Positions 36,992 through 59,273 of a stretch of 64,000 nt of DNA are shown one piece after another. The notes below the pieces were generated by a model, which was not told where the DNA came from, made no database searches, and saw only the letters and a program-made list of their open reading frames with translations. This DNA is from an uncultured Alphaproteobacteria bacterium. Lineage in GTDB: Bacteria; Pseudomonadota; Alphaproteobacteria; RF32; CAG-239. The translations under genes were made by a program, and so were the position numbers. The stretch covers positions 2,523 through 66,522 of the forward strand of contig CALXTD010000005.1 in assembly GCA_944391315.1 (NCBI GenBank), given 5' to 3'. The stretch's first letter is position 1; each line of letters starts with the position of its first letter.

Positions 36992-37171
36992 AATTATACC
37001 GGAATATTTATTGAGGCTTATATGACCGGATCCTCAGAGATTATACATAATGATATTTATTTCGATTTTTAACCTACCATCTCCCTTAAAATTGTCAACT
37101 CAAAACACCGGAGAATTTTGCATGAATGATAAAGAGCAAAAAATTTTAGTATGCTAAATACCAAAAAGCTC

Positions 37172-37669
37172 GGAGAACGAGACGAATAATAAGATTTAAG
37201 GAAGGAAAAAGCGCAGCGTACAAAATAGTACGTGAACATTTTTCCTATCCGTAAAATCTGTATTAGTCGACCACAGTGCGAACTTGTAAAACTGGGTAGA
37301 ATAGTACAGATAGAGGCATTTCTAGCTGCGAGAAAAATTTTAGTGTACAGAGTAGTACATGAATTTTTCGAGACAGCGTAAAATGCCTCTAGATGTGCTG
37401 TTATACACAGTTTTATTAAAACTGGGGAGAACGAGACAAATAATAAGATTTAAGGAAGGAAAAAGCGCAGCGTACAAAATAGTACGTGAACATTTTTCCT
37501 ATCCGTAAAATCTGTATTAGTCGACCACAGTGCGAACTTGTAAAACTGGGTAGAATAGTACAGATAGAGGCATTTCTAGCTGCGAGAAAAATTTTAGTGT
37601 ACAGAGTAGTACATGAATTTTTCGAGACAGCGTAAAATGCCTCTAGATGTGCTGTTATACACAGTTTTA
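37172..37669. repeat. tandem direct repeat, 2 copies with a 254-bp period, each made of two diverged ~125-nt hairpin modules (A-B-A-B)
   Basis: By hand alignment, 37172-37415 and 37426-37669 are identical except for one position (37184 g versus 37438 a). Confidence 0.92.
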
Positions 37670-37672
37670 CTT

Positions 37673-38122
37673 TTATTTGGCAATCATCGCCGTAAACTCA
37701 GCCTCCGACACCACCTTGCCATCAACAAGGGATTGTCCACGGAAAACATAAACACGACCATGCTCTTTGATTTTTTCAACATGCATTCTGAGCTGATCTC
37801 CGGGTTTTACCGGCTTGCGGAATTTTACACCGTCAATTGACATAAAGAAAACGCCTTTTTTGTTTTCTTTATAGTTTTCAAAACTTGAGATAACCAAGGC
37901 ACCGGCTGTTTGAGCCATTGCTTCAATTTGCAAAACACCAGGCATTACCGGATTTCCGGGGAAATGTCCTTGGAAAAATTCTTCATTCATGGTAACATTT
38001 TTAAGACCAACACCTTTTTCACCGGGAATTTCAACCTCAAGACGGTCAACCAACAAAAACGGATAGCGGTGTGGAAGCATATCCATAATTTCTTCAACAG
38101 TATAAATTTTATTTTCAGCCAT
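37673..38122 (-). CDS. fabZ: 3-hydroxyacyl-ACP dehydratase FabZ
   Basis: LPHRYPFLLVDR, FFQGHFPGNPVMPGVL. Confidence 0.95.
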   Translation of the reverse strand: MAENKIYTVEEIMDMLPHRYPFLLVDRLEVEIPGEKGVGLKNVTMNEEFFQGHFPGNPVMPGVLQIEAMAQTAGALVISSFENYKENKKGVFFMSIDGVKFRKPVKPGDQLRMHVEKIKEHGRVYVFRGQSLVDGKVVSEAEFTAMIAK

Positions 38123-38152
38123 TTTCTTTCCTTTACTATATCAAAATAAAAA

Positions 38153-41440: not shown

Positions 41441-41475
41441 ATTTCAGTATCCCTTTAATTCAAAATTACACCACA

Positions 41476-42609
41476 TTAAGCGAACCAACGATTAATAAGT
41501 CTGGCAACATCATTCCATGTTGCATAAATCATCAATGCCATAATCAAAACAAAGCCTGAGCGAAACAGTGCTTCTTTAAAAGACGGGCTGAGCTCTCTTC
41601 TGGCCACCATTTCCAAAAAGCAGATAACGATATGTCCACCATCCAACAACGGAATTGGAAACAGGTTAATAAGCCCGAGGTTAATAGAAAGCAAGGCCAT
41701 AAAGACCACAAAGTCGATCCATCCGCTTTGCTTAGAAATATCACCGGACAACTCAGCAATACGAATAATACCGCCCACATCTTCACCGCCGCGTTTTCCG
41801 GTCAACATCTGACCAACACCACGAAGTGTCGCAACCGTAATATCCCAAGTTTCAACCGAAGCATCACGAACAGCCTCCGCCAAAGACAACGGTTCTTGGC
41901 CAAGCTCAACCACATTAACCGACTTAATCCCCAGCATCGGACGCACATTCTCAGAATTTTCACCTTCGGAAGCATCAATTTTTTCCAAAACAAAGTTCAG
42001 TGTTTTAACCGCATCACCGCGTTGAACAACAACCTCAACCTTGCCGTCAACAGCCAAATCAACTTCATAACGAATGTCATTAAAGTCTTTTATCTTTTTG
42101 CCATTAATCTCAAGAATTCTGTCATCTTTGAGAATACCGGCCTTCTCTGCCGCTCCACCGGAAATAACTTCACCAACAACCGGAGGAAACGTCATTTTGC
42201 CAAAGCTCCAAAAGATAGCGGCAAAAACCAAAATAGCAAACAAATAGTTAGCTGCCGGTCCTGCCAGCGCAATCAAAATTCGGCGAGACGGCGGCATAAG
42301 CTGAAAAACATGCTTTTTCTCTTCGTCAGATAAACTGTTCAGCTTTTCCGATTCGGAAACAGAAGAAGCATCTTCATCACCAAAAAACTTGCAATATCCG
42401 CCCAAAGGAACAGCGCAAACTTTCCATCTTGTCCCCTTCTTATCATTACGCCCCCACAGCTCCTTACCAAAGCCAAGGGAGAACTCATCAACCTTCACAC
42501 CCAAGGCTCTAGCCACAAGAAAATGCCCGAGCTCATGAACAAAAACAAGCACACCGAGCAGAACAACAAACGGAACAATATAGTAAAGAATATTGCTGAT
42601 AATTTCCAT
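41476..42609 (-). CDS. rseP: RIP zinc metalloprotease RseP (M50, with PDZ)
   Basis: HELGHFLVA, a PDZ segment, and NLFPIPLLDGGH. Confidence 0.9.
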   Translation of the reverse strand: MEIISNILYYIVPFVVLLGVLVFVHELGHFLVARALGVKVDEFSLGFGKELWGRNDKKGTRWKVCAVPLGGYCKFFGDEDASSVSESEKLNSLSDEEKKHVFQLMPPSRRILIALAGPAANYLFAILVFAAIFWSFGKMTFPPVVGEVISGGAAEKAGILKDDRILEINGKKIKDFNDIRYEVDLAVDGKVEVVVQRGDAVKTLNFVLEKIDASEGENSENVRPMLGIKSVNVVELGQEPLSLAEAVRDASVETWDITVATLRGVGQMLTGKRGGEDVGGIIRIAELSGDISKQSGWIDFVVFMALLSINLGLINLFPIPLLDGGHIVICFLEMVARRELSPSFKEALFRSGFVLIMALMIYATWNDVARLINRWFA

Positions 42610-42616
42610 AACCTAA

Positions 42617-43411
42617 CTATCCTACCATAACAAAGAACACAACAAAACCGACAATAGCAAAAGGCGCAGCAAAAATAAGCCCATCGACACGATCAAAAAT
42701 TCCGCCATGTCCGGGGATTAAATCGCTTGAATCTTTCAAATTCAAATGACGCTTAATTTTTGATTCAATTAAATCACCACATTGAGCAATAACAGCCAAC
42801 AAACCTGCAAATGCAGCAAAGTAAGGAGCAAAATTAATTCCTAATGCAACAAAATAAACATAAGAAACAATTGCAGACACACATACACCGCCAATTAAAC
42901 CGGACCAAGTCTTGTTCGGACTGATTGAAGGCGCAAGCTTTGGCCCTTTAACGGTTGTCCCCACGATGAAGGCACCGACATCAACACCCCAAACAATAAG
43001 CACAAACCAAATAAGCAACAAGCTGTTTGTTAAAGCAAAAAACCAAACCAAAGAACCGATTCCTAAAGAAATATAGGGAACCCCCAAAACCAATAAAGCT
43101 CGATGCTCTTCACCTTTTGATTTAATTGCAACAATAATGGTCGCAATTGCCATAACTGCCAAAGTTAAGAAAATAAACTCAGCCGGCATCATACAAATCA
43201 CAACCACAGAAGATGTATAAGCTGCGGCATACAAAGCATTTTTCTTATTTGGCACCATTGTAGCCCATTCCCAAGAAAGAAGCGTTCCGCACAAAATAGC
43301 AAACAGATTTACAAACGGGGCTCCAAGAAAAAGCAAAAACAGCGTCACCGGCGCCAATATAACCGAAGAAACGGCACGTTTAATCAAAGAGCTTTTTTTA
43401 GACTTTTCCAT
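42617..43411 (-). CDS. cdsA: phosphatidate cytidylyltransferase
   Basis: The C-terminal SKIKRHLNLKDSSDLIPGHGGIFDRVDG signature. I use the ATG at 43411 with a GGAGAG RBS instead of the TTG at 43432. Confidence 0.88.
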   Translation of the reverse strand: MEKSKKSSLIKRAVSSVILAPVTLFLLFLGAPFVNLFAILCGTLLSWEWATMVPNKKNALYAAAYTSSVVVICMMPAEFIFLTLAVMAIATIIVAIKSKGEEHRALLVLGVPYISLGIGSLVWFFALTNSLLLIWFVLIVWGVDVGAFIVGTTVKGPKLAPSISPNKTWSGLIGGVCVSAIVSYVYFVALGINFAPYFAAFAGLLAVIAQCGDLIESKIKRHLNLKDSSDLIPGHGGIFDRVDGLIFAAPFAIVGFVVFFVMVG

Positions 43412-44108
43412 ATCTTCTCTCCCGAGAACCAAAATTCTCTATAATTTCATCAAGTTCTTGTGCAGTAAAATCAGGCCATAAAGTCGAGCTGAAAAACAAT
43501 TCGGCATAAGCCACCTGCCACAACAAAAAATTACTGATTCGCTGTTCACCGCTGGTTCTGATGAGCAAATCCGGATCAGACATATCTTGCGTATAGAGCA
43601 TATCAGAAAACAATTTAATATCAACATCACTTTCTGACATATCACCTTTTTTTACTAAAGCTGCAATTTTTTTAGCTGCATTAACTATTTCATGACGTCC
43701 GCCATAACTGATAGCCAGACACAAAACCATTCCGGTATTTTGCGCGGTATCATTCTCAAGCTTAGCAATCTGAGCCACAATATCCTTATCAAGCATATTG
43801 CGCTCACCGATAACGCGAATTCGAATATTATTCTTCTGCAGCTCAGAAAAATCAGATTTCAAATACTGACGCAACAACCCCATAAGAGTATCAACTTCAT
43901 CTTTAGGGCGATTCCAATTTTCGGTCGAAAAAGCATAAAGCGTCAAAAACTTAATACCGCGTTTATTCGCCTCCTGAGCAATCTCTTTAACAACTTCCGC
44001 ACCTTTTTTATGGCCGGCAGCACGAGGAAGATTGCGCTTCTGCGCCCAACGCCCATTACCGTCCATAATAATGGCAATATGTTCTAAACTATTTTTTTTC
44101 TCAGACAT
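43398..44108 (-). CDS. uppS: undecaprenyl diphosphate synthase
   Basis: HIAIIMDGNGRWA and RTSGEQRISNFLLWQ. Confidence 0.93.
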   Translation of the reverse strand: MSEKKNSLEHIAIIMDGNGRWAQKRNLPRAAGHKKGAEVVKEIAQEANKRGIKFLTLYAFSTENWNRPKDEVDTLMGLLRQYLKSDFSELQKNNIRIRVIGERNMLDKDIVAQIAKLENDTAQNTGMVLCLAISYGGRHEIVNAAKKIAALVKKGDMSESDVDIKLFSDMLYTQDMSDPDLLIRTSGEQRISNFLLWQVAYAELFFSSTLWPDFTAQELDEIIENFGSRERRYGKV

Positions 44109-44140
44109 TAATCAATAATAAAAAAATTTTTTTCAGGTTA

Positions 44141-44174
44141 CAACAAAAGCGGCAAAGGCCCAAAGGCCTGCCGC
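44141..44174 (-). terminator. possible terminator after frr
   Basis: On the minus strand: gcggcaggcc-tttg-ggcctttgccgc followed by ttttgttg. The stem is imperfect. Confidence 0.4.
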
Positions 44175-44190
44175 CATCAATCTAAAAGAA

Positions 44191-44754
44191 CTACACTTGC
44201 AAAATATCTTTTTCTTTCTGAGCCAAAAGCTCTTCAATTTTCTTAACGGCTTCATCCGTAAGCTTTTGGATTTCACCTTCAAAACGCTTTTCATCATCTT
44301 CAGAAATAGCGTTATCTTTTTTAAGTTTTTTAATTTCATCAAGCGCTTCACGACGCAGATTGCGAACAGCAACTTTGTTGTTTTCAGCATATTTACCGGC
44401 CACTTTTGTAAGCTCTTTGCGGCGCTCTTCGCTAAGTGGCGGAATAGGAATACGAATAAGCTGTCCGTCTGATGCCGGATTAAGCCCCAAGTCCGATTCC
44501 ATAATGGCTTTTTCCACAGCCTTAGCCAAACCTCTGTCCCAAACTGAAATTGATAAAGTTCTTGCATCGGGCACACTGATTGTCCCGACCTGAGAAAGCG
44601 GCGTCATGCTGCCATAAGCTTCGACCATAATTCCATCTAACAGACTAACATGAGCCCTTCCGGCACGCAACCCACCAAAATCAGACTTCAAAGAGTCAAT
44701 TGTTTTATCCATTTTTGCTTTTGTTTCAGACTTAATTTGATTAAAATCAGACAT
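44191..44754 (-). CDS. frr: ribosome recycling factor
   Basis: 187 aa, LRAGRAHVSLLDGI...PIPPLSEERRKEL. Confidence 0.95.
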   Translation of the reverse strand: MSDFNQIKSETKAKMDKTIDSLKSDFGGLRAGRAHVSLLDGIMVEAYGSMTPLSQVGTISVPDARTLSISVWDRGLAKAVEKAIMESDLGLNPASDGQLIRIPIPPLSEERRKELTKVAGKYAENNKVAVRNLRREALDEIKKLKKDNAISEDDEKRFEGEIQKLTDEAVKKIEELLAQKEKDILQV

Positions 44755-44848
44755 GAGGTTAACACCCTATAAAAAAGTTTACGTTGATTACAATAATATT
44801 TATTTTAGCGCCTTTGGCAAGAAGTTTTTAAACCACGCGGAAAAAAGC

Positions 44849-45559
44849 CTATTTAATGACTGTGAAATTCCCCTTTCCTGCCAACACTTTTTGCAAAGCA
44901 TTTTTTTCATGCTGAGAAAACACGATGATTGGGAGTTTATTTTCACGAGCCATGGCAATGGCGGTCAAATCCATCACACCGAGCCGCTTTTCAATAACCT
45001 CGTTATAAGAGATTTCATCAAACTTTTTAGCTTTTGGATTTTTCAACGGATCGGAATCATACACCCCATCAACTTGTGTAGATTTAAGCAATGCATCACA
45101 GTCCATCTCCGAAGCTCTGAGCACCGCACCGGTATCTGTCGTAAAAAACGGATTACCGGTACCACCGGCAAAAATCACGATTCGTTTTTTCTCCAGATGA
45201 CGCTTTGCGCGGCGATAACGATAGCTTTCGCACACTTGCGGAATTTCCAACCCCGAAAGCACTCTGACATCAAGCCCCATATTTTCCATAACATTTTGCA
45301 AATAAACAGCATTCATAACCGTTGCCATCATGCCGATATAATCGCCGACCGTGCGCTTAATTCCCTTAGATGCCTCTTTCACGCCGCGAAAGATATTTCC
45401 GCCGCCGACCACAATACAAACCTCAACACCGGCCTCATAAACTTCTTTAATCTGCGTCGCCACTTTTTTAACCGCATCTACCGAAATCCCATAGGCGCCA
45501 TCACCCATAAGCCCTTCGCCAGAAACCTTAATCAGCACGCGTTTATAAATTGATTTCAT
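44849..45559 (-). CDS. pyrH: UMP kinase
   Basis: [14 protein letters not shown] use the ATG at 45559 with an AGGAGAAGG RBS; the track start at 45673 is an upstream TTG. Confidence 0.92.
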
Positions 45560-45730
45560 GAACCTTCTCCTTGCATTCCGCCCCAAAACTTTTGCTAATA
45601 ATATAAAATAAAATTTTCTAAAGTCAAAGTCATTATCGGCACCATACACAAACCCGCAAAGAGATTCTTGCAAAAGAAAATAAATTGTGCAATAACAAAC
45701 AAAAGTTTAATTATCTTCAAGGAAAATATC

Positions 45731-46375
45731 ATGAGCATATCAGTTATATTCGGTTTATCGGCACTCGGCGGATATTTATTGGGTTCGATTCCGTTCGGAC
45801 TGGTTTTAACCAAAATGTGCGGTCTTGGCGACATCCGCAAAATCGGCTCCGGCAACATCGGCGCCACCAATGTTCTGCGCACCGGACGCAAAGACCTTGC
45901 CCTGTTAACCGTATTGCTTGATGCTTTCAAAGCCGGTATTGCCGCTTGGGTTGCCACAACCTTTGCACCGGATTCTTTTTACAGCTTTTTTGGATACATC
46001 ACCACAACCAATATCGTAGCTGGATTAATCGCCGGCATCTGCGGTTTTCTCGGACACAACTTCCCGATTTGGCTAAAGTTTAAAGGTGGCAAAGGCGTCT
46101 CTTCTGCTTTTGGTTTTATCTTATTCACTTATTGGCCTTTGGCTTTGGTTGCGCTTGGCGTTTGGTTGATTGTTGCCTTCACCAGTCGCTACTCATCTTT
46201 GTCAGCCTTAACCGCTTGCGCCTGCGTTCCGTTTTTTTCTTTCTTTATGACCGATCCGGTACATACCGGCTTTTACACCATTATGGCGCTGATAATCATT
46301 CTCAGACATCATGCAAATATATATCGCCTTCTGCATGGTGAAGAAAGCAAAATTTCATTTAAGAAAAAAGCCTAA
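45731..46375 (+). CDS. plsY: glycerol-3-phosphate acyltransferase PlsY
   Basis: GSIPFG...GDIRKIGSGNIGATNVLRTG. I use the ATG at 45731 with an AAGGA RBS; the track start is an upstream TTG. Confidence 0.9.
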   Translation: MSISVIFGLSALGGYLLGSIPFGLVLTKMCGLGDIRKIGSGNIGATNVLRTGRKDLALLTVLLDAFKAGIAAWVATTFAPDSFYSFFGYITTTNIVAGLIAGICGFLGHNFPIWLKFKGGKGVSSAFGFILFTYWPLALVALGVWLIVAFTSRYSSLSALTACACVPFFSFFMTDPVHTGFYTIMALIIILRHHANIYRLLHGEESKISFKKKA

Positions 46376-47490
46376 TGATTACAGATAAGGAACGCATCGC
46401 CCAACTTCGCTTAATCAACACCGAAAACATCGGTGCAGTAACTTATCACAAATTAATAAAACATTTCGGCAGCGCGGAAAAAGCCCTTGAAAACCTTCCT
46501 CCGCGCTTTACCCCTTTTGCCAAAGACAAAGCCGAAGCCGAGCTTAAAAAAGCGCATAAAATCGGCTGCCACATCATCAGCTATGACGATGAAACCTATC
46601 CACAAATGCTGAAACACATTGCCGACGCCCCGCCGATTATTTATGCCTTGGGCAATATTGAGCTGCTAAATCACACCCCTTCCGTAGCAATAGTCGGCTC
46701 CAGAAACGCAACAGTAAACGGCCGCAAAATGGCCTCCAGAATTGCCTATGAGCTAACCGAAGAAAACGTCATCGTTGTTTCCGGCATGGCGCGAGGTATC
46801 GATTCGTCTGCCCACAAAGGCGCATTATATGCCAAAGGCCAGCAAGGCGCGACCATCGCAGTTTTAGGCACCGGCATAGATATTGTTTATCCTGAAGAAA
46901 ATTCAGACCTTTACCAACAAATCGTCAAACAAGGTTTGATTATTTCCGAATTCCCGCTGGGAATCACACCGCAAGCCCAAAACTTTCCGCGCCGCAACCG
47001 CATTGTCGCCGGCATAAGCTCGGGCACTTTGGTGGTTGAGGCAAACTTGCAGTCAGGATCACTGATTACCGCCCGCTTAGCCTTAGAACAAAATCGCGAT
47101 GTTTTTGCCGTCCCCGGATCTCCGCTGGAATCTCGCTCAAGCGGCACGAATAAACTGATTAAAGAAGGCGCGATTTTGGTTGACAGTGCCGAAGATATCT
47201 TGCCTCACTTATCCAAACCTCTTCGCCCTCTGCCGCAAAAACAAACACCCCCAGAACAAGAATTATTTGATAATCTCCTTGACAAAGACAAAAATAATGT
47301 CGATATTCCTCAAGAGCAAGAAGGCGAAAATCTTCTGGATTATCTGAGTCGAGACGGAACATATATAGATGACCTCCTCCGCCAAAGCAGCTTAGATTCG
47401 GGCACTTTATCGGCAAAATTGCTTGATTTAGAGCTTGAAGGAAAGATAGAGCGTCTTCCGGGCAACAAAGTAGCATTATTAAAGAAATAA
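46375..47490 (+). CDS. dprA: DNA processing protein DprA (Smf)
   Basis: VAIVGSRNAT...VVSGMARGIDSSAHKGAL...FPRRNRIVAG. Confidence 0.9.
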   Translation: MITDKERIAQLRLINTENIGAVTYHKLIKHFGSAEKALENLPPRFTPFAKDKAEAELKKAHKIGCHIISYDDETYPQMLKHIADAPPIIYALGNIELLNHTPSVAIVGSRNATVNGRKMASRIAYELTEENVIVVSGMARGIDSSAHKGALYAKGQQGATIAVLGTGIDIVYPEENSDLYQQIVKQGLIISEFPLGITPQAQNFPRRNRIVAGISSGTLVVEANLQSGSLITARLALEQNRDVFAVPGSPLESRSSGTNKLIKEGAILVDSAEDILPHLSKPLRPLPQKQTPPEQELFDNLLDKDKNNVDIPQEQEGENLLDYLSRDGTYIDDLLRQSSLDSGTLSAKLLDLELEGKIERLPGNKVALLKK

Positions 47491-47504
47491 GTGGAAAAAG
47501 AGCC

Positions 47505-49967
47505 ATGAAATTAGTTATCGTAGAGTCTCCTGCCAAAGCCAAAACCATTAACAAATACCTTGGTTCAGACTATAAGGTTCTGGCAAGCTTCGGCCATATC
47601 AGAGATTTGCCGAGCAAAGACGGCTCGGTTGATCCGGATCATGACTTTGCCATGAAATGGGAACTAAGCCCCGGAGGCAAAAAGCGCCTTGCAGACATCA
47701 TTAAAGCCGTAAAAGAATGTGACACGATTGTACTGGCATCAGACCCGGATAGAGAGGGAGAAGCAATCGCATGGCATATTTTAGAAGAACTGCACGCTCA
47801 TAAGGTTTTGAAAGATAAAAAAATAGAGCGCGTTGTCTTCCACGAAATCACCAAACATGCTGTCACTGACGCAATTAAAAACCCAAGAAGCATTGATGAT
47901 AATTTAGTATCGGCTTACATGGCACGCCGCGCACTTGATTATCTGGTAGGATTTACCTTATCACCGGTTTTGTGGCGCAAGTTGCCGGGCTCAAAATCGG
48001 CCGGCCGCGTCCAGTCAGTTGCCTTGAGACTGATTTGCGACCGCGAAACTGAGATTGAAAAATTCAAGCCCGAAGAATATTGGAGCATTGACGTTGATTT
48101 ATTGACCGCCAAACAAGCTCTGATAACTTCGCATTTAATCCAGCTTGACGGCAAAAAGCTCGAGAAATTTGACATTCCAAACCAAACCTCCGCCGAAGAA
48201 GCCAAGGCTAAGATTGAGGCACAAGAATTCAGCGTTGCCTCGATTGAAAGAAAGAAGGCCAACCGCTATCCGGCACCGCCGTTCACCACCTCAACCCTGC
48301 AGCAAGAAGCCGCGCGTAAGCTCCGTTTCTCAGCCAAGAAAACCATGCAGATTGCGCAAAAGCTTTACGAAGCCGGTTTGATAACTTATATGAGAACCGA
48401 CGCGGTCAATCTGTCTGAAGAAGCAATTGCCGCCTGCCGTGAAGCGATTACCAAATACTTTGGCCCTGATTATCTTCCAAAACAAGCCAAAGAATATAAA
48501 ACCAAGAGCAAAAACGCCCAAGAAGCTCACGAGGCAATTCGTCCGTCTGATGTCATGAACACCCCCAAAAAGATGGAAGGAAAACTTGACCCTGACGGCT
48601 ATAAGCTTTATGAACTGATTTGGAAGCGTACGATTGCCTGCCAGATGAATCCAGCAATTTTGGATAAAGTCAGCATTGACTTTAATTCTGATGATAAACA
48701 AATTGTTTTAAGAGCCAGCGGACAAGTCATTGCCTTTGACGGATTCTTGCGTTTGTACCAAGAAAGCAAAGATGACGATAACGAAGATGAAGAAAACCGC
48801 ATTTTGCCAAAGGTTGATGAAGGCGAACGCATGACCAAAGGTGAAATTCGCGCTGATCAACACTTCACCACCCCGCCACCGAGATTTACCGAAGCTAGTC
48901 TGGTTAAAAAGCTTGAGGAATTAGGCATCGGACGTCCGTCAACTTATGCGACGATTATTTCGGTTTTGCAAGAGCGCAAATATGTAAGAGTTGAAAAATT
49001 GAGATTTATACCGGAAGACCGTGGCCGCATTGTGACCGTGTTCTTAGAAAACTTCTTCCGCAAATATGTTGAATATGACTTCACCGCACAGCTGGAAGAA
49101 TTTTTAGATGACATCTCCGCCGGTGAAATGGAATGGAAAAAGCTTTTGAGCGGTTTTTGGGCCAAGTTTATCAAAAACATTGACGCAGTAAAACCATTAC
49201 AAATCACCGAGGTTATTGACCGCATTGATGAGGCTTTGTCGCATCACCTGTTCCCGCCGCGTGAAGACGGCAGCGACCCACGCTCCTGCCCAATGTGCGG
49301 ACAAGGCAAATTGAGCGTTAAGTTTGGTAAATTCGGCGCCTTTATCGGCTGCTCAAATTATCCGGAATGCAAATACACCAAACCTTTGACCGATGTCAAA
49401 GACGAGGAAGAAAAAGACACACCGCGTCCGGCCTCTGCCGAAGACAAAGAATTGGGCGAAATGAATGGCTTAAAAATATATCTTAAGAAAGGCCCTTACG
49501 GTTTTTACGTCCAGTTAGGTGAAGACGCCACGGCCACAACCGAAAAACCCAAACGTGCCTCGCTGCCCAAAAACATCACGGCAGAAGAAATCACCTTGGA
49601 ACAAGCCCAAAGATTATTGAGCATGCCTTTTGATTTAGGCGAAGGAATAATCGTCAGCAGCGGCAAATTCGGCCCTTACATCAAACAGGGAAACAAGTCA
49701 AAATCCCTAACCGGAACCGATACGATATTTAATATCACGCTGGAACGCGCTAAAGAGATTTTATCCGGCGCGGTTGAACGTCCGGCCGGTGTTGCCCTTG
49801 GCACCCACCCGAAGTTAAAGGCCGAAATCACATTGAACAACGGGCGCTACGGCCCTTACCTCAAATGCGGCAAGAGCAACTTCGCAATTCCGAAAGATAT
49901 GCAGGGCAAACCCTTGAGCTTGGAAGACGCTCTTAAGATCATCGACGCCAAACAAACGGCAAAATAG
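47505..49967 (+). CDS. topA: DNA topoisomerase I
   Basis: Toprim N-terminus KLVIVESPAKAKTI, a catalytic-Tyr region, and the C-terminal zinc ribbon CPMCGQGKL...CSNYPECKY. Confidence 0.96.
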   Translation: MKLVIVESPAKAKTINKYLGSDYKVLASFGHIRDLPSKDGSVDPDHDFAMKWELSPGGKKRLADIIKAVKECDTIVLASDPDREGEAIAWHILEELHAHKVLKDKKIERVVFHEITKHAVTDAIKNPRSIDDNLVSAYMARRALDYLVGFTLSPVLWRKLPGSKSAGRVQSVALRLICDRETEIEKFKPEEYWSIDVDLLTAKQALITSHLIQLDGKKLEKFDIPNQTSAEEAKAKIEAQEFSVASIERKKANRYPAPPFTTSTLQQEAARKLRFSAKKTMQIAQKLYEAGLITYMRTDAVNLSEEAIAACREAITKYFGPDYLPKQAKEYKTKSKNAQEAHEAIRPSDVMNTPKKMEGKLDPDGYKLYELIWKRTIACQMNPAILDKVSIDFNSDDKQIVLRASGQVIAFDGFLRLYQESKDDDNEDEENRILPKVDEGERMTKGEIRADQHFTTPPPRFTEASLVKKLEELGIGRPSTYATIISVLQERKYVRVEKLRFIPEDRGRIVTVFLENFFRKYVEYDFTAQLEEFLDDISAGEMEWKKLLSGFWAKFIKNIDAVKPLQITEVIDRIDEALSHHLFPPREDGSDPRSCPMCGQGKLSVKFGKFGAFIGCSNYPECKYTKPLTDVKDEEEKDTPRPASAEDKELGEMNGLKIYLKKGPYGFYVQLGEDATATTEKPKRASLPKNITAEEITLEQAQRLLSMPFDLGEGIIVSSGKFGPYIKQGNKSKSLTGTDTIFNITLERAKEILSGAVERPAGVALGTHPKLKAEITLNNGRYGPYLKCGKSNFAIPKDMQGKPLSLEDALKIIDAKQTAK

Positions 49968-49996
49968 AAAAAAACCTCGCGAAATGCGAGGTTTTT
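49968..49996. terminator. bidirectional terminator shared by topA and the convergent 713-aa Cys-rich gene
   Basis: aaaacctcgc-gaaat-gcgaggtttt, a 10-bp stem flanked by an A-run and a T-run. Confidence 0.65.
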
Positions 49997-50006
49997 CAAA
50001 ATTCTG

Positions 50007-52148
50007 TTACAAATAGCTTACAATAGGGCAATATCCTCCACAATCAGCGTACGTTCTAAAATAAAGAACCGGATAGATTGTATAGCTTTGTGACCGAGAT
50101 GTACTCAATAAATATCCTCCACCTTTGGTACAGTACCACGCTTTATCATCATTTCCCCCATACGCAATTGCCGTCCAAAAAGAAGAATATGAAGATGATA
50201 CCATTTCACAATGCTTAGCCCCAGGAAGTTTCCAATGTCCTTTTGTTTCAGAAGCTCCCGACGGAGCATAATTAACAGCAATATTCACCGACGGAAAGTT
50301 TTCTGAAGAACTTTGATAACAAGAGGTACAATTTGATCCGTCAAGATGCTCAATAGACGCAGATGCATTTCCAGAACACCATTGAGAACCAACACTACAC
50401 GTGCTAGCGCTAAAACCGACAGGTCCCCATTGTGCAGTTCCTGCCGATTCTAAAGATATAAGATTAAATTTAAAATAACTTCCGACATCACGTATTTCAA
50501 TAATTTTTCCTAAAGCCACTTTTCCGCTTTCTAAAGAACGAGAACAGGTTCCGTCTTTATAATAAATATCCCCTTCATGACATGTATAATTGCATCTTTG
50601 ATTTTTATCGCTATAAACATATCCAGAATTACACTTATTATAACAATACTTATTACTACATTCTTCATAATCACAATCAGCATTTTCAGGACAAGAAGAA
50701 AGTTCACAACGATTAGGGCAATAACACCCTTTTGCATAATCCCAATTATATCCACCGGAACATTCACAAATACTATATTTTCCTTCACAAGAAGTTCCGT
50801 ATCCAACTTCATAACTTCCTGTACAGCTATATGTATAGTAAGAAGGATTGCACACACAACGAGATCCATCCCAAATTTCAGCGGCAGAACAACTGATTTC
50901 GCATTGGCTTCCGTTCCATGCATAATCTCCTGTACAGTAGCATCTTTCATATTTTCCGTTACACGAAGACCCATACGGGCTTTCGTGGCTGCCATTACAA
51001 CTGTAAGAGTAATAGTATGGATCACAAACACAACTACTTCCGTTCCATACTTCTTTGTACCCACAATTTACAATACAGCTATATCCGTTCCACGAGTAAG
51101 GAGAAGAACAATTACATGATTTATATTTTCCATTACAAGCTTCCCCAACGCCCCCGGCATAGCCTGAACCTGTGCAAGTATATTTGTAAGAACTTTCACA
51201 TTGAGCCGTACAAGTCTGTGTCGTTTCGTTCCAATCATAACCGGATTGACAGCCGGATTTGTAATAACGATTTGAACATTCCTCATAAGTGCAAGTGTAA
51301 GGGCTCGGACAAGAAGTTAAAGTTCCCAAGTTCGGACAAGGTTTGCAATTATCGTATTTTATTTGCGAACCGGATTGACAAGAACTTGCTCCGGCTGCCG
51401 GTCCCATTGAGCCGCAATTCAAAAATCCGTCGCAGGGGTTCATTTTAACTTTATATTTTGTCTGACCGTTACAATCCGTGCAAGCGGCACCGTCTTGAAC
51501 ATAGCCCTCGGGAATTGTCGTGTAGTCATAACCTTTACACAAATTGCAGCACGTTCCGAAAGTTTCATCGTATTTGCACTTGTCATTCGGATTTATCTGC
51601 CACCCGCTTTCGCAAGTATTGGTATAATCGGGATTAAGCTCTTTACAGGCACGTTCGGTATCTTTTTCACATGACGCGTATTTATTTCCGCAAGCCTGCC
51701 CGACGCCGTAATAAGGCGGCTCACAAGTTTTATAACCCGATGGGCAAACGCAACGGGCAAAATAATTGCTGTTATAAATACAAAATCCTTCTGGTGTTTC
51801 TCCGGCAGCACAAGAAGTCAGTCCATAACCTTCTTTGCGACAACGTTCGGCATCATTCAAATCATAATCAGGCGCTCCACCGGAGCCACCATTTCCGCCA
51901 CTGTTTTCATTATTACCAAACGCTTCGCCGCTACAAGCTGAGGTATCATTAATAAAGCAAACTGCAGCTAATTTAATCTCATCAGAAGAAGACAAGCTCG
52001 AGGAGGGAGAATAGAGGTGTGTGTGAAGTGTGTTGATAAGTCGTTCTCCACCCTCGGTAAAAGAAATATCTGCCATTGCGCTCATCGGCAACAATCCTGC
52101 CGCCGACAGCATTGCGGTTAAAACCGCATAATTACGAGAATTCAACAT
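50007..52148 (-). CDS. cysteine-rich secreted protein, 713 aa (paralog C): conserved N-domain, Cys repeats, DUF1566-like C-terminus
   Basis: ATG with an AAAGGTG RBS. Signal peptide MLNSRNYAVLTAMLSAAGLLPMSAMA. 68 Cys by my count. The N-terminal half aligns with the 271-aa neighbour. Confidence 0.8.
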   Translation of the reverse strand: MLNSRNYAVLTAMLSAAGLLPMSAMADISFTEGGERLINTLHTHLYSPSSSLSSSDEIKLAAVCFINDTSACSGEAFGNNENSGGNGGSGGAPDYDLNDAERCRKEGYGLTSCAAGETPEGFCIYNSNYFARCVCPSGYKTCEPPYYGVGQACGNKYASCEKDTERACKELNPDYTNTCESGWQINPNDKCKYDETFGTCCNLCKGYDYTTIPEGYVQDGAACTDCNGQTKYKVKMNPCDGFLNCGSMGPAAGASSCQSGSQIKYDNCKPCPNLGTLTSCPSPYTCTYEECSNRYYKSGCQSGYDWNETTQTCTAQCESSYKYTCTGSGYAGGVGEACNGKYKSCNCSSPYSWNGYSCIVNCGYKEVWNGSSCVCDPYYYSYSCNGSHESPYGSSCNGKYERCYCTGDYAWNGSQCEISCSAAEIWDGSRCVCNPSYYTYSCTGSYEVGYGTSCEGKYSICECSGGYNWDYAKGCYCPNRCELSSCPENADCDYEECSNKYCYNKCNSGYVYSDKNQRCNYTCHEGDIYYKDGTCSRSLESGKVALGKIIEIRDVGSYFKFNLISLESAGTAQWGPVGFSASTCSVGSQWCSGNASASIEHLDGSNCTSCYQSSSENFPSVNIAVNYAPSGASETKGHWKLPGAKHCEMVSSSYSSFWTAIAYGGNDDKAWYCTKGGGYLLSTSRSQSYTIYPVLYFRTYADCGGYCPIVSYL

Positions 52149-52182
52149 AATATCACCTTTCTTAGCTTGTCTTCACGAATCT

Positions 52183-52211
52183 AATATAGCATAAATTCGA
52201 TTTACTTGCAA
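52183..52211 (-). promoter_or_regulatory. candidate sigma70 promoter of the 713-aa Cys-rich gene
   Basis: On the minus strand: TTGCAA, 17 nt, TATATT. It is paralogous to the promoter at 54071-54099. Confidence 0.45.
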
Positions 52212-52242
52212 CAGGCATTTTTAAGAAAAGTGAAAGTGTGGC

Positions 52243-52271
52243 GCAAAAAAAGGAGCAACTAATTGCTCCTT
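52243..52271 (-). terminator. rho-independent terminator after the 300-aa Cys-rich gene
   Basis: On the minus strand: aaggagcaa-ttag-ttgctcctt followed by ttttttgcg. Confidence 0.6.
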
Positions 52272-52296
52272 ATACAATATCTTATTTTTTTAAAAC

Positions 52297-53199
52297 CTAA
52301 AAAGCGAGGACGGGGCGGAACTCGAGGTTGTTGTACTTAGTGTCGTCGAGCAAGCCGTAACTGGCGTCAAAGTTTGAGTACCACGCGTAGCCGTCATTGT
52401 ACTCGGACGACGACCAAGCGTAGGGGCTGTCTGTGAATTGTGTCCCATTTGCTCGGCTGAATCCTGTGTTTATCGCGTCTTGGTTATTATAATATGAGGT
52501 AAATATTCCTGCTGCCGGTAAGCACCAATCTCCCGCACTTGTTCCTTCCGTTTTATATTCATGTGCCGCCCATGCTGCCGGATAAGTGCTCTTATTGCCT
52601 GCTGCCAGTATCTTTTCTGAATTACCGCAACTATCATAATCTTTTGATGCCGCTTCTGCTGATGTTTTGTTCGGCAATGTCGAAATATCTGTACCATACC
52701 CGCCCCACTCATAGTTGCCTATTGACTTTAATGCCATCGCCCATCTTTTGCCATCACTGCCTATATAGACCACAACACCAATAGCCTTTTTTGTTCCTAC
52801 ATCATTATCATATCCTGATGATGAACAAGTTCTATCTTCGTACACTATAGCACCAATTTTGCATTCTGATGAAATTTCCACACAGCCCTTGCCGTCTTGC
52901 CATTCAAATCCTGCATAGCATTCACATTTCGCATATTTACCATTGCAATCAGCCCCAATTCCGGCCGCTTCAGCATATCCTCTTCCTATGCACAAATACG
53001 GAAAGTCAGCACATTCTCCGCCGCTGTTGCTTGGGCAATACCAATAACTTCCAAACGGGCATTTTAAGCCGCCGTCGCAAGAGCTTGTACTGGTATATCC
53101 CATTGCCGTACAGCTCGGGGTGGCGATACAGGCCGCATTTGCTTGCACAATGCCGCCACAAAGAACAAATGCTGTTGTTGTATAGAGTAATTTTTTCAT
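52297..53199 (-). CDS. cysteine-rich secreted protein, 300 aa (paralog B): one Cys module plus a DUF1566-like C-terminal domain
   Basis: I use the ATG at 53199 (RBS GGAGAAAGAAG, signal peptide MKKLLYTTTAFVLCGGIVQANA); the track start at 53241 would overlap the upstream gene. The C-terminus reads GDWCLPAAG...YAWSSSEY...AWYSNF...EFRPVLAF. Confidence 0.75.
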   Translation of the reverse strand: MKKLLYTTTAFVLCGGIVQANAACIATPSCTAMGYTSTSSCDGGLKCPFGSYWYCPSNSGGECADFPYLCIGRGYAEAAGIGADCNGKYAKCECYAGFEWQDGKGCVEISSECKIGAIVYEDRTCSSSGYDNDVGTKKAIGVVVYIGSDGKRWAMALKSIGNYEWGGYGTDISTLPNKTSAEAASKDYDSCGNSEKILAAGNKSTYPAAWAAHEYKTEGTSAGDWCLPAAGIFTSYYNNQDAINTGFSRANGTQFTDSPYAWSSSEYNDGYAWYSNFDASYGLLDDTKYNNLEFRPVLAF

Positions 53200-53219
53200 C
53201 TTCTTTCTCCTTTGTTTTC

Positions 53220-54035
53220 TTACATTGCGCAATAGTCGCAATAATCCGTGTAACCGCTTTTACATCCGGTGGCATACCACAAACCCGAACAGTCTTCATA
53301 TTCGCAGACTGAACCACTAGGGCAACTCGTATAAGTTCCTAAATTCGGACAAGCTTTGCAGTTATCATATTTCGTGATTGTGCCGGACAAACAAGTCGCG
53401 GCACCGGCTGCGCCGCCCATAGAACCGCAATCTTGAAACCCGTTACAAGGATTGATTTTGACTTTATATTTTGTTTGACCGTCACAATCGAGGCAGGCTT
53501 CGCCGTCTTGGATATAACCTTCTGGAATAGTGGTATAATCGTAACCGGCACCACAAGGTGTGCAGGTGCAAGACACATATTTTCCGTCGCAAGCCTCACC
53601 CACCCCGACATTCGGCTCTTCACAAGTCACATAATCACTCGGACAAGAAGCCACGCATTCGGAATAATACGGACCGTATGGGCATTTCTTGCCACCGACC
53701 TTATAACCGTCGGGGCAATCACTCACGGTATAACCTTCATTATAACAACGCTCATTGGGATTAAGGTCAAAACTTGGAACATCATCACTTGTCCCACTAC
53801 CAAAGCCAAAACCGGCGCAAGCTTCTGTATCATTAATAAAACAGACTGCTGCGATTTGAAATTTATCAGAAGAAGGCAAACTTGGTGACGAAGCGTAAAG
53901 GTGTGTGTGAAGTGTGTAGACAAGCTGCTCGTCACTCTTGATAACAGAATTATCAGCTCTCGCGCCAGTCGGCGATATTCCTACAGCCAAACAAAACGCC
54001 GCGGCCAGAACCGCCTTTTGTCGTGAGATAAACAT
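53220..54035 (-). CDS. cysteine-rich secreted protein, 271 aa (paralog A): conserved N-domain only
   Basis: ATG with an AGGAGAAG RBS. Signal peptide MFISRQKAVLAAAFCLAVGISPTGARA. YTLHTHLYASSPSLPSSDKFQIAAVCFINDTEAC aligns with INTLHTHLYSPSSSLSSSDEIKLAAVCFINDTSAC of the 713-aa protein. Confidence 0.75.
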   Translation of the reverse strand: MFISRQKAVLAAAFCLAVGISPTGARADNSVIKSDEQLVYTLHTHLYASSPSLPSSDKFQIAAVCFINDTEACAGFGFGSGTSDDVPSFDLNPNERCYNEGYTVSDCPDGYKVGGKKCPYGPYYSECVASCPSDYVTCEEPNVGVGEACDGKYVSCTCTPCGAGYDYTTIPEGYIQDGEACLDCDGQTKYKVKINPCNGFQDCGSMGGAAGAATCLSGTITKYDNCKACPNLGTYTSCPSGSVCEYEDCSGLWYATGCKSGYTDYCDYCAM

Positions 54036-54070
54036 AATACTTCTCCTATCTCGTTTGCCTTCACGACTCG

Positions 54071-54099
54071 ATTATATCATAATTTCGCCATACTTACAA
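54071..54099 (-). promoter_or_regulatory. candidate sigma70 promoter of the Cys-rich A-B operon
   Basis: On the minus strand: TTGTAA, 17 nt, TATAAT (consensus -10), about 35 nt upstream of the ATG at 54035. Confidence 0.5.
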
Positions 54100-54188
54100 G
54101 AGTATTTTTATTTTAAGATAAATTTATCGCGAAAAAAAAGAGCAATCTTTTACAAGAATGCCCTTTTATAAAATCATTATCAAAAAAA

Positions 54189-54809
54189 CTAAGAAGCCTT
54201 TTTATCAGTAGCTTTTGTTTTTTCTTGCAGATTTTTAATCAAACCGGCAACACCGTCCGGAGACTGCTTAATAAATGCTGTATATTCATTACGTGCCGTT
54301 ATCGCAAGGCTAACATTTTCGATAATGATATCAACAATTTTGAACTCATTACCGGTTTGCTTAACACGCCAAACAACTTTTGCCGGCTCACCTTGTTCCA
54401 TCGGCACGGTTGAGTTTACAAAAATCTGATTAGCAGAGTTTGACGCATCCGTACCCTTGAAAATAAAGTTACGTCCCTTAAATTCATCAAAGCGCTTTGA
54501 CCAGGTCTGAACATTCAGTTCACGATAAGCATCAATAAATTCTTGACGTTGTTCAGGTGTAGCCGTACGCCAATAACGCCCCAAAACAAACTGCCCGATA
54601 AATTGAATATCCAACGCACTGTTAAACAACTTTGCAAAGCGTTTGTCTTTTTCTGCCTGCGGAATATTTGCATTGATAATATTTTCAATACCGTCTTCGG
54701 TCACACCTTTAACAAAAGCCTCAGCCTTTGCCGCATCAACGGCAGCCTGCGCTCCAAAAGCCCAAACGCAAGACAATGCAGCAACCAAAGATAATAAAAA
54801 TTTATTCAT
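54189..54809 (-). CDS. mlaC: phospholipid-binding periplasmic protein MlaC (Ttg2D family)
   Basis: Signal peptide MNKFLLSLVAALSCVWAFGAQA, family-like sequence, adjacent to mlaA. I use the ATG at 54809 with an AGGAG RBS. Confidence 0.78.
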   Translation of the reverse strand: MNKFLLSLVAALSCVWAFGAQAAVDAAKAEAFVKGVTEDGIENIINANIPQAEKDKRFAKLFNSALDIQFIGQFVLGRYWRTATPEQRQEFIDAYRELNVQTWSKRFDEFKGRNFIFKGTDASNSANQIFVNSTVPMEQGEPAKVVWRVKQTGNEFKIVDIIIENVSLAITARNEYTAFIKQSPDGVAGLIKNLQEKTKATDKKAS

Positions 54810-57909: not shown

Positions 57910-58566
57910 TGCCCGCGGGGGCCCCCCGCTCCTCAATATGGTACTAATTTCTGGGGTAATTCTGACAATAATTACGGCTTTGGTTCTTCAAATATTCACG
58001 ACAATATTGAGAATAGAGAGAACCAAACCGAACAGAGTTATGGGTTGGAAAACAGTAACACACCCCAATGGAGACTGAACAACACAGCTTTAGTGCAAAA
58101 TAATAATGCGTATCTTGATTTTAATGGAAAGGAATTACGTTGGCATCAAAATAATAAGGTAACTAATTCTTGGAAAGCAATGTCGGGGCAGCCTGATTAT
58201 CAATGTAAAGAATATGACCGCGTAAAAAATAAAGGTCCATTACCAGAAGGAAAATGGTTGGTAAGACAATCTCAACATCAGAATTATGACCAAACTCAAA
58301 CGATATGGGACAAATTAAAAAATAATCTTGGAGGAGGTGAATGGAGAGGTGGAAAAGCTTCTTGGGGAAACAACCGCATTTGGTTGGAACCAGCGCCTGG
58401 AACAGATAATAAAGACCGCACAGGCCTCTCTATTCATGGTGGTAAAGAGTATGGTTCTGGTGGATGTATTGATTTAACAGATAAGATGGATGATTTCACC
58501 GATAAATTTAAGAGATATGGACAAGACATGATTCTTAATGTAAAATATGATAAAGATTGTTGGTGA
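57910..58566 (+). CDS. orphan polymorphic-toxin C-terminal cassette 1; toxin domain Tlde1/DUF2778-like (L,D-transpeptidase fold)
   Basis: The frame opens right after TGA at 57907 and has no in-frame ATG (TTG at 58045 is possible). LDFNGKELRWH...AMSGQPDY...NKGPLPEGKWLV...WLEPAP...RTGLSIHGGKEYGSGGCIDL...ILNVKY fits the DUF2778 pattern as I remember it. Confidence 0.6.
   Translation, partial: CPRGPPAPQYGTNFWGNSDNNYGFGSSNIHDNIENRENQTEQSYGLENSNTPQWRLNNTALVQNNNAYLDFNGKELRWHQNNKVTNSWKAMSGQPDYQCKEYDRVKNKGPLPEGKWLVRQSQHQNYDQTQTIWDKLKNNLGGGEWRGGKASWGNNRIWLEPAPGTDNKDRTGLSIHGGKEYGSGGCIDLTDKMDDFTDKFKRYGQDMILNVKYDKDCW
57941..58032 (+). repeat. conserved pre-toxin junction, copy 1
   Basis: It matches 58963-59054 (offset 1022 nt) with about 7 mismatches in 92 nt by hand alignment. 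Confidence 0.9.
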
Positions 58567-58950: not shown

Positions 58951-58961
58951 ATATATCATAA

Positions 58962-59273
58962 AGTACAAACTTTTGGGGTAATTCTGACAATAACTATGGC
59001 TTTGGTTCTTCAAATATTCACGACAATATTGAGAATAGCGAGAACCAAACTGAATATGTGGGAAATTGCACTCCTTTTGGTATTGCCAAAAGAGCTTTTG
59101 AAGTGTATAAAATGTCTAATATCTCAAATCCTGTTAAAACCGGAAATAATGCAGTTGATTTTGCATTAGGAAAAATTCCAGCCATAAAAAAATGGAATAC
59201 TGGTTTTAATATAGGTAAATTGGGATTTGTAGCACAACAAACATATAATGATACATGTAAGCACAAAAATTAA
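58962..59273 (+). CDS. orphan polymorphic-toxin C-terminal cassette 2 (short, unknown toxin domain)
   Basis: The frame opens right after TAA at 58959 and has no in-frame ATG before the variable part (GTG at 59058 is possible). After the shared junction it diverges into a ~72-aa Gly/Asn/Lys-rich tail. Confidence 0.5.
   Translation, partial: STNFWGNSDNNYGFGSSNIHDNIENSENQTEYVGNCTPFGIAKRAFEVYKMSNISNPVKTGNNAVDFALGKIPAIKKWNTGFNIGKLGFVAQQTYNDTCKHKN
58963..59054 (+). repeat. conserved pre-toxin junction, copy 2
   Basis: See copy 1. It encodes TNFWGNSDNNYGFGSSNIHDNIENSENQTE. Confidence 0.9.

Follow-up and report, generated by a model that had tools for sequence, protein, structure and literature searches.

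Three genes at positions 50007-54035 of a 64,000-nucleotide stretch from an uncultured Alphaproteobacteria bacterium (GenBank assembly GCA_944391315.1, contig CALXTD010000005.1, positions 2,523 to 66,522 of the forward strand; the window in what follows) encode members of a large family of modular proteins, in which stalks made of small Cys-rich modules are combined with lectin-like head domains on one polypeptide or on two. We put at roughly 55% the probability that this lineage-restricted multigene family constitutes a repertoire of Sec-exported, ligand-binding, adhesin-like modular proteins. The original prediction, made from the letters of the window, had described the three genes, here designated A, B and C, as equivalent tandem paralogs; we find instead a two-gene cassette (A and B) and a fused form (C), in two predicted transcription units.

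The three co-oriented open reading frames (ORFs) that had been predicted were recovered on the minus strand, each preceded by the expected purine tract resembling a ribosome-binding site. Gene A (53220-54035) encodes 271 amino acids (aa), comprising a signal peptide (aa 1-27), a linker and a Cys-rich N-terminal core (N-core, aa ~97-271). Gene B (52297-53199) encodes 300 aa, with a signal peptide (aa 1-22), two Cys-rich modules that we call GYT and GKY (module names are coined here from the sequences) and a head. Gene C (50007-52148) encodes 713 aa, with a signal peptide (aa 1-26), a linker, an A-like N-core, extra Cys modules and a head. The Sec-type signal peptides proposed earlier are borne out as predictions by basic residues, a hydrophobic stretch and an AXA-type site at each N-terminus, with putative cleavage between TGARA and D in A, VQANA and A in B, and MSAMA and D in C. 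The C-termini (CDYCAM in A, RPVLAF in B and CPIVSYL in C) contain no hydrophobic segment. The proteins hold 26 (9.6%), 16 (5.3%) and 68 (9.5%) Cys, respectively, in agreement with the 68 reported before for the 713-aa product. One Cys of A and one of B reside in the signal peptide, leaving odd numbers in the mature chains (25 and 15), while mature C retains all 68.

Protein A aligns with residues 1-304 of C (BLAST, 49% identity, E 7e-95) and B with residues 372-697 (24% identity, E 5e-16). Judged from these alignments, C is a fused counterpart of A plus B, with an A-like N-terminus, additional Cys modules and a B-like C-terminal domain. The similarities had been thought to run through all three proteins. 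The long LHTHLY, AAVCFINDT and GYDYTTIPEGY blocks are indeed common to A and C, but they are absent from B, and the extreme Cys-richness attributed to the whole set does not extend to B, most of which is an alpha/beta domain that is not Cys-rich; the C-GKY--C-C module does recur in A, B and C. Protein B amounts to a short version of the architecture, with its signal peptide, a GYT module carrying an extra first Cys (five Cys), a single GKY module and the head. In A, the LHTHLY and AAVCFINDT motifs sit in a low-confidence linker ahead of the N-core. A helix is predicted at aa 34-45, in the conserved L-x-x-T-L-H-T-H-L region, with a predicted local distance difference test (pLDDT) score below 50; the point of comparison for this region was the N-terminal amphipathic helix that returns secreted collagen-like adhesins of the Lcl type to the outer membrane.

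An AlphaFold2 model of C, built from 76 aligned sequences, had a mean pLDDT of 74.9 and a predicted template-modelling (pTM) score of 0.38, the latter being low because the chain is extended and multi-domain. The model contains a confident alpha/beta domain at aa ~523-713 (50010-50582, minus strand), which Foldseek matches to the C-terminal domain of Legionella Lcl (8q4e_A; probability 1.00, target template-modelling score 0.61), as well as to CD94/NKG2A and LOX-1, both C-type-lectin-like folds. Searches of BFVD viral models return DUF1566 proteins of tailed phages for the same domain (probability 1.00, E 4e-8 to 3e-3). The head of B (aa ~113-300; 52300-52863, minus strand) is linked to it by hhalign, which aligns the B-family profile with the C head at 96% probability and E 2e-9, the fold having been modelled only for C. 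In addition, aa 153-299 of B match phrog_4245 in PHROGs (E 7e-10), and 19 of 69 B homologues match Pfam Lcl_C (PF07603) at E<0.01, with a best E-value of 1.2e-7. The scores checked among these 19 lie below the Lcl_C gathering score of 34.9 bits; scores above it come from two remote members of the family, P0328 (56.5 bits) and P0311 (35.6 bits), and the B-family profile aligns with a protein that carries Lcl_C above the Pfam threshold. The core Lcl_C motifs (W-x-LP, WSS and a C-terminal V/F-R-P/C-V strand) occupy positions that are nearly invariant in the B-family alignment, and they appear as DWCLPAAGI, AWSSSE and FRPVLAF in B and as HWKLPGA and YPVLYF in C. The Foldseek, BFVD, Pfam homologue, PHROG and hhalign matches together identify the head as a divergent member of the Lcl_C/DUF1566 superfamily with a C-type-lectin-like fold, so part of the locus belongs to a known domain superfamily.

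Head organization varies among B homologues. Among homologues of ~500 aa (P0147, P0155, P0176 and P0197), some carry two tandem heads, and in others (P0147 and P0210) a heptad-like coiled-coil linker, NKITELTNKITEQTNKINEIEQK, stands in place of the GKY module and hints at oligomeric stalks. Two other kinds of match were discarded: Phage_base_V hits in six B homologues cover ~25 residues below threshold and were taken as spurious, and adenovirus-fibre matches to the C model, with a root-mean-square deviation (RMSD) above 40 Å, are artefacts of elongated shape.

The Cys-rich stalk, unlike the heads, matches no known domain family, and here the original prediction, which could assign the Cys-rich part to no described domain, stands. 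Neither Pfam nor NCBIfam returns a hit at E<=1 for A, B or C, the Pfam EGF, cEGF, TNFR and furin-like models included. Only marginal Pfam hits occur among 76 N-core members (RANK_CRD_2 in two, E 0.0055) and 69 B members (cEGF in two, E 2e-4; ADGRF3_N in one). Neither the N-core nor the B alignment, used as a profile, retrieved any PDB sequence, and PHROGs contain no match for A, only the head of B being matched. In the C model, the first ~96 residues are of low confidence and probably disordered, whereas the stalk itself (aa ~97-522; 50583-51860, minus strand) consists of small beta-hairpin modules of a few recurring types, modelled with confidence across aa ~97-240 and ~270-480; block-mean pLDDT is mostly 76-92 at aa 101-230 and 271-470 and lower at 231-270 and 471-520. 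The best fold match of the stalk, to the NELL2 EGF1-6 array, is weak (E 1.3e-3, probability 0.41, RMSD 30 Å), as are those to TNFR, Pfs25, the insulin-receptor Cys-rich region and an Entamoeba lectin. The AlphaFold2 model of A (mean pLDDT 62.8, with low confidence at aa ~196-224) gave nothing usable in a fold search (best E 0.28). Four module types recur: the GYT module, with four Cys (C-x3-GYT-...-CP(Y/F)), the GKY module (Y-x-Y-x-C-x-G...G-x-G-x2-C-x-GKY-x2-C-x-C), 'GYDYTTIPEGY...NPCDGF' and 'CPNLGT...YEECS...C-x-SGY'. Thirteen of the 20 invariant columns in the family alignment are Cys, the remainder being Gly, Tyr, Pro and Ala, a pattern that fits a disulfide scaffold. By these sequence comparisons, the Cys-rich stalk is a new sequence family.

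Across relatives, the same parts occur in split and fused form. We identified 24 fused genes with a recognisable N-core anchor, which combine N-core, repeats and head in ~490-890 aa, and, besides the A-B pair of the window, 29 distinct split pairs, each with an N-core gene of ~275-415 aa and, next downstream in the same orientation, a head gene of ~265-415 aa. A hydrophobic leader precedes the first conserved Cys in 30/30 head genes. The fusion of these parts in some paralogs and their separation in others argues that A and B would act together. Across pairs, the identity of one partner tracks that of the other (r = 0.60, a value reached by 0/2000 permutations), indicating that the pair duplicates as a unit, and mean identity is 78% for stalk partners versus 59% for head partners.

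The numbers of Cys in split and fused forms, counted from the first conserved Cys, point to a covalent bond between the partners. Short N-type proteins contain mostly 25 or 31 Cys and B-type proteins mostly 9, 15 or 17 (odd in 29/33), such that 23/29 adjacent pairs combine two odd numbers, as does the window pair (25 + 15). Fused proteins have even counts in 18/24 cases and long head-less forms in all, and splitting C at its A-equivalent boundary yields 29 + 39 Cys, both odd. The extra Cys of B is residue 2 of the mature protein and A ends in CDYCAM, which makes an end-to-end A-B link plausible. This parity pattern suggests that one disulfide would bridge the two parts of a fused protein and that its counterpart in split cassettes would be an intermolecular A-B bond. 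In two metagenome-assembled genomes (MAGs), a DsbA-family gene lies directly upstream of family genes (locus L054, 2017-2742, and locus L016, 8360-9106); its product carries the active site FDFSCGYCH (Pfam DSBA, E 1.2e-19) and, at its N-terminus, a hydrophobic segment compatible with export or with anchoring in a membrane. An enzyme for periplasmic oxidative folding is thus probably available to the clade, and the adjacency itself may reflect chance synteny or a functional link to that process. As a separate observation on the cassettes, stalk-head spacers of 300-550 nt in the MAG CALYAY (L031 11077-11491, L042 11062-11454, L036 1003-1537 and others like them) contain GC-rich palindromic units such as CCTCGCCCTTGAGGGGAGAGG and CCCTCCCTGAAAACTCAGGGAGGG, which resemble repetitive extragenic palindromic (REP) sequences or miniature inverted-repeat transposable elements (MITEs). 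Hairpins in these spacers could set the A:B expression ratio; the corresponding gap in the window is 20 nt.

The extent of the family was assessed by scanning one genome per species for 185,579 species, which yielded 148 confirmed stretches and, from the best 80 matches, 68 loci. All 68 loci derive from six MAGs assigned to uncultured Alphaproteobacteria, Pseudomonadota or proteobacterium. The retrieved loci contain at least 82 distinct family ORFs in CALYAY, at least 31 in CALXTE, at least 7 in CALXPL and at least 1-3 in the others, confirming the paralogous family that had been proposed and counting its members across genomes. Those of CALYAY total at least 103 kb of coding sequence on contigs that sum to 1.44 Mb. 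We estimate that the family occupies roughly 5% of the CALYAY genome, probably an underestimate, given the many copies located at contig ends. In relatives, the copies are scattered among housekeeping genes, and BLAST against the window ORFs detected no further member in the 64-kb window. Accordingly, the earlier description of a locally expanding family holds in part: the locus does change locally, C being absent from a relative with 93% identity, but the expansion is mainly genome-wide, in the form of dozens of scattered copies. In a collection of 5.8 billion proteins, C matches 366 proteins and B 1421; the 120 matches listed for C, almost all of them from ENA metagenome assemblies, are unnamed and carry no precomputed Pfam domain. 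Searching 1.84 billion 50%-identity representatives with protein A alone returned 272 clusters at E<=1e-3 and 42 at E<=1e-30, and 2.9 million viral contigs contain no relative of the N-core. Literature searches found no described Cys-rich family in gut Alphaproteobacteria. Beside one family member, at L069 6456-7853, lies a gene of the ADP-dependent glucokinase/phosphofructokinase family (PF04587), which to our knowledge is unusual in Alphaproteobacteria.

Comparison with the closest paralogs gives ratios of nonsynonymous to synonymous divergence (dN/dS) of 0.12-0.18 for A, 0.25-0.49 for B and 0.12-0.29 for C. On these ratios, all three genes are under purifying selection and constrained, and they are not decaying, a possibility that the original prediction had allowed for. 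The content of the locus nevertheless turns over. Locus L057, from the MAG CALXTE, is 93% identical in DNA to window positions 39960-49974, from bamA to topA, and five well-aligned flanking proteins are 96-99% identical, with dS of 0.15-0.43. Directly after topA, L057 has an A-B pair and lacks C. Its positional A is 87% identical to that of the window, with dN of 0.079 versus 0.006-0.018 in the flanks, and its positional B is 55% identical, with dS of 1.45 versus 0.15-0.43 in the flanks, which points to a different paralog brought in by recombination. An A-B pair likewise follows topA in L052, from a more distant MAG. The cassette therefore occupies an old position, with its content turning over and C representing a lineage-specific gain or loss. 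Synteny with L057 stops exactly at the family locus (~50000-54200), the mlaC/mlaA side having no counterpart in L057, and family genes may act as recombination breakpoints. No template or variable-region repeats of a diversity-generating retroelement (DGR) occur in the window, and no YxDD reverse-transcriptase motif occurs in the window or in 1.2 Mb of relatives' loci; their absence is of note, since lectin domains of the DUF1566 type are commonly targeted by DGRs (PMC5758913). Inverted promoter repeats and tandem or simple-sequence tracts of the phase-variation type are likewise absent from the window.

At the window locus, the cassette and the fused gene appear to be transcribed separately. 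A predicted sigma-70-like promoter upstream of A (54071-54099, minus strand) consists of TTGTAA, a 17-nt spacer and TATAAT, with TG preceding the -10 hexamer and 10/12 positions matched in a consensus scan, and is followed immediately 3' of the -10 hexamer by a leader element, GAGTCGTGAAGGCAA (54055-54069, minus strand). The A-B intergenic gap of 20 nt contains the ribosome-binding site of B, AAGGAGAAAG, which precedes an ATG start, and an intrinsic terminator with a 9-bp stem and a T run follows B (52250-52271, minus strand). Gene C has a promoter of its own (52183-52211, minus strand; TTGCAA, 17-nt spacer, TATATT, again with TG before the -10), which is conserved in paralogs, the leader element GATTCGTGAAGACAA (52167-52181, minus strand) and an intrinsic terminator with a 12-bp stem and a T run (49969-49997, minus strand), the latter within the 39-nt gap that separates C from the convergent topA. 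As predicted from these signals, there are two transcription units, a bicistronic A-B operon and a monocistronic C, flanked by topA on one side and by mlaC and mlaA on the other.

Alignment of the regions upstream of 79 distinct copies, from five MAGs plus the window, reveals a common arrangement composed of a -35 hexamer (TTTACA, TTGCAA or TTGAAA), a 17-nt spacer, a -10 hexamer and GAkTCGTGAAGrCAA. The last of these, which is not palindromic, is the most conserved upstream stretch, above the -35 and -10 hexamers. The strict motif is confined to the upstream regions of family genes, including genes cut short at locus ends, and Rfam contains no family at the leaders, where its weak hits correspond to terminators. 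From this we infer that the 15-nt leader would be an operator or a 5'-leader element for a family-wide regulator.

Elsewhere, the window encodes CckA and an ordinary diderm envelope gene set, and one relative has a Tim44-type neighbourhood, in keeping with an alphaproteobacterial origin. Three further features of the window are recorded here. A 244-nt segment is present in tandem at 37172-37669, with 100% identity and 254 nt from start to start, in an ORF-poor stretch (~36490-38150); each copy holds 42-43-nt inverted repeats, and Rfam assigns no family at gathering score. The repeat may have arisen by recent duplication, represent a mobile palindromic element or be an artefact of assembly. A 97-nt direct repeat with 91% identity (57936-58032 and 58958-59054) lies near ORF 58045-58566 in the lowest-GC part of the window (32% GC, 58-60 kb), which may mark another repetitive or recently acquired gene. 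Finally, a 266-aa ORF on the plus strand without a Pfam match (44753-45553) overlaps one on the minus strand (44849-45673); its best counterparts in relatives are 118-130 aa long, with dN/dS >1, and one of the two overlapping ORFs is probably not a gene.

The explanation that we favour, an exported adhesin-like repertoire, would operate as follows. A signal peptide, a flexible linker and a rod of small Cys-rich beta-hairpin modules precede a C-terminal lectin-like head in the basic unit, the head being placed at the end of its own chain, as in C, or on a second, separately exported chain encoded downstream, as in A plus B. Cys residues would pair into disulfides in the periplasm, and in split cassettes the single unpaired Cys of A would join the single unpaired Cys of B, rebuilding the fused architecture; candidates for this bond are a Cys near the C-terminus of A and residue 2 of mature B. 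The stalk would carry the head at its tip for ligand binding, giving the lollipop shape known from Lcl or from DUF1566-tipped phage fibres, and the paralogs would constitute a germline repertoire of specificities for host, mucus or cell-surface ligands, probably glycans. Cassettes duplicate as units, with heads diverging faster than stalks and copies being swapped, gained or lost between close relatives. Several observations weigh against this explanation. Neither B nor C matches Pfam Lcl_C, with no hit at E<=1. The heads are acidic, with isoelectric points (pI) of 4.6 in B and 6.1 in C and a median of 5.0 over 39 family heads, whereas the face of L. pneumophila Lcl that binds sulfated glycosaminoglycans is basic; a polyanionic glycosaminoglycan bound through charge is thus an unlikely ligand, and the Lcl ligand is not simply transferable. 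Family heads are also rich in aromatic residues. The family proteins carry no lipobox, beta-barrel or sorting signal, and a crude, partial motif search of 1.27 Mb of relatives found neither a GspE/PilB-type ATPase nor a pilin-like N-terminus; with no outer-membrane route found, the proteins could stay in the periplasm. The proposed A-B bond faces 6/29 pairs that break the odd + odd rule, and the parity statistics come from related paralogs that represent few independent events.

Retention in the envelope is the substance of an alternative that we regard as unlikely, according to which Sec export is the only step and the proteins bind peptidoglycan or envelope glycans or form a disulfide-cross-linked layer, as chlamydial Cys-rich proteins do. 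Plain type I signal peptides without any outer-membrane targeting feature, the absence of a type II secretion or pilus ATPase or pseudopilin motif from the sampled DNA, the envelope genes mlaC, mlaA and bamA as local neighbours and the DsbA gene adjoining family genes in relatives would all suit it. Other loci, however, lie among unrelated housekeeping genes, so the envelope neighbourhood is probably incidental, and the search for secretion genes was crude and covered part of the genomes. Fast head divergence and copy turnover are more typical of outward-facing proteins, and the proteins structurally nearest to the head (Lcl and phage DUF1566 proteins) are binding tips that act on the outside. 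Outward-facing proteins could instead form a variant surface coat, a possibility that we rate as low but as the strongest of those that compete with the adhesin-like repertoire. One or a few copies would then be on at a time, with the leader as the switch handle and binding of secondary importance, and antigenic or phase variation would act against host immunity, phage or predators. The very high copy number (at least 82 and at least 31 genes in two MAGs), a promoter and 15-nt leader conserved at every copy, a conserved N-terminus with a variable C-terminal part, the replacement, gain and loss of copies between close relatives together with the synteny break at a family locus, and a general likeness to Cys-rich variant surface families of protists are what such a coat would lead one to expect. 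Yet the promoter is intact at every copy, hence there are no silent cassettes, and the usual machinery is wanting: the window has no invertible-promoter repeats, tandem tracts or DGR repeats, no reverse-transcriptase motif is found in the window or the loci, and the sole recombinase near a family gene, at L069, is an ordinary Xer-type integrase. Moreover, selection is purifying overall, and the surface location that a coat presupposes is itself an inference.

The remaining alternatives concern the nature of the Cys residues and the origin of the heads. That the Cys bind metal, in zinc-knuckle-like CxxC motifs, or buffer redox state or sulfide, we consider very improbable. A Cys content of 9.5%, several CxxC/CxC motifs in A (such as C181-C184, C226-C229 and C266-C269), the low AlphaFold2 confidence at aa ~196-224 of A and the greater difficulty of forming disulfides, should the organism live in the anoxic gut, are compatible with this idea, but the Cys that make up 13/20 invariant columns are set, together with Gly, Tyr and Pro, in short beta-hairpin modules, as is typical of extracellular modules rich in disulfides, the weak fold neighbours (EGF, TNFR and the insulin-receptor Cys-rich region) are all disulfide-rich, and the parity pattern is explained by pairing, not by metal sites, with DsbA present in relatives. 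We attach least weight of all to a derivation from phages or bacterial competition, whereby the proteins would be fibre or tailocin remnants or polymorphic toxins. The resemblance of the head to C-terminal parts of phage proteins (phrog_4245 and the BFVD DUF1566 models) and the pairing of a conserved N-terminus with a variable C-terminus are the points in its favour. Sec signal peptides, absent from virion proteins, are nonetheless found on all these proteins, their neighbours include no phage genes, neither PHROGs nor the 2.9 million viral contigs contain a relative of the N-core, the proteins scanned contain no Pfam toxin domain, and B is an exported lectin-like head rather than an immunity protein.

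Compared with its genome size, the family would rank among the largest paralogous families of bacteria. It does not extend beyond a small clade of uncultured Alphaproteobacteria, and current annotation misses it: the three window proteins have no Pfam or NCBIfam match, and no homologue bears a name in any source. The analysis defines a new Cys-rich domain family tied to an Lcl_C/DUF1566 binding head, and it outlines a route to head diversification through germline paralogs, where elsewhere DGRs diversify such heads. Two predictions follow: that A and B are linked by an intermolecular disulfide, and that the leader serves regulation across the family. Should the organisms prove to be gut-associated, the family would be a strong candidate for the means by which they attach to the host or are recognised by it. 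A bolder form of the favoured explanation, which we advance as speculative, is that the family represents a germline library of dozens of two-chain or single-chain receptors on a new disulfide-rich bacterial stalk fold, in which A and B would leave the cell separately to be joined end to end by one intermolecular disulfide and the shared leader would let a single regulator choose the members expressed. If true, such a library would be a bacterial counterpart of protist variant surface proteins and a paralog-based alternative to DGR hypermutation.

Literature searches found nothing relevant to the stalk, the logic of split and fused cassettes, the Cys parity, the common leader or the extent of the expansion, all of which seem to be undescribed. 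Several known systems share individual traits with the family. The Pmp proteins of Chlamydia, the Hop proteins of Helicobacter and Msp2 of Anaplasma also form families of many paralogs that occupy several percent of a small genome and evolve fast through recombination. These are outer-membrane beta-barrels or autotransporters, whereas the family described here has no barrel or anchor and its domains are unrelated. Eukaryotic Cys-rich arrays (the EGF domains of NELL2, LRP2 and Pfs25/Pvs25, TNFR and the Entamoeba Gal/GalNAc lectin) resemble the stalk as rods of small, disulfide-type beta-hairpins, a likeness of type drawn from weak fold matches in which homology is not demonstrated. The variant surface proteins (VSPs) of Giardia, characterised by dense CXXC motifs, a C-terminal transmembrane helix and a conserved cytoplasmic tail, differ in that the proteins described here have no Pfam VSP hit and A, B and C lack a C-terminal hydrophobic segment.

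Closer parallels are provided by the head. DUF1566-type C-type-lectin domains serve as a scaffold that DGRs diversify in surface proteins, giving rise to variable ligand-binding tips (PMC5758913). The heads of B and C belong to the same superfamily as these proteins, among them Legionella LdtA, with its DGR-diversified CLec2 domain, and phage proteins; unlike the DGR-diversified CLec2/DUF1566 proteins, they lack a lipoprotein signal, and their diversity is held as many germline paralogs. Lcl, the collagen-like protein of Legionella pneumophila, is a secreted, trimeric, lollipop-shaped adhesin whose DUF1566-containing head binds host glycosaminoglycans (PMC11162425). It differs from the present family in several respects: where Lcl has a collagen triple helix, the stalk here is made of Cys-rich beta-hairpin modules, GXY repeats being absent from all three proteins and tandem repeats from the DNA; the heads have four Cys (B) or more (C), while the C-terminal domain of Lcl contains no disulfides; the head may reside on a polypeptide of its own; paralogs number in the dozens, where Lcl is encoded by one gene; and the heads are acidic where that of Lcl is basic. 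What the two share is the overall plan, with an N-terminal export signal, an elongated stalk and a C-terminal Lcl_C/DUF1566 head.

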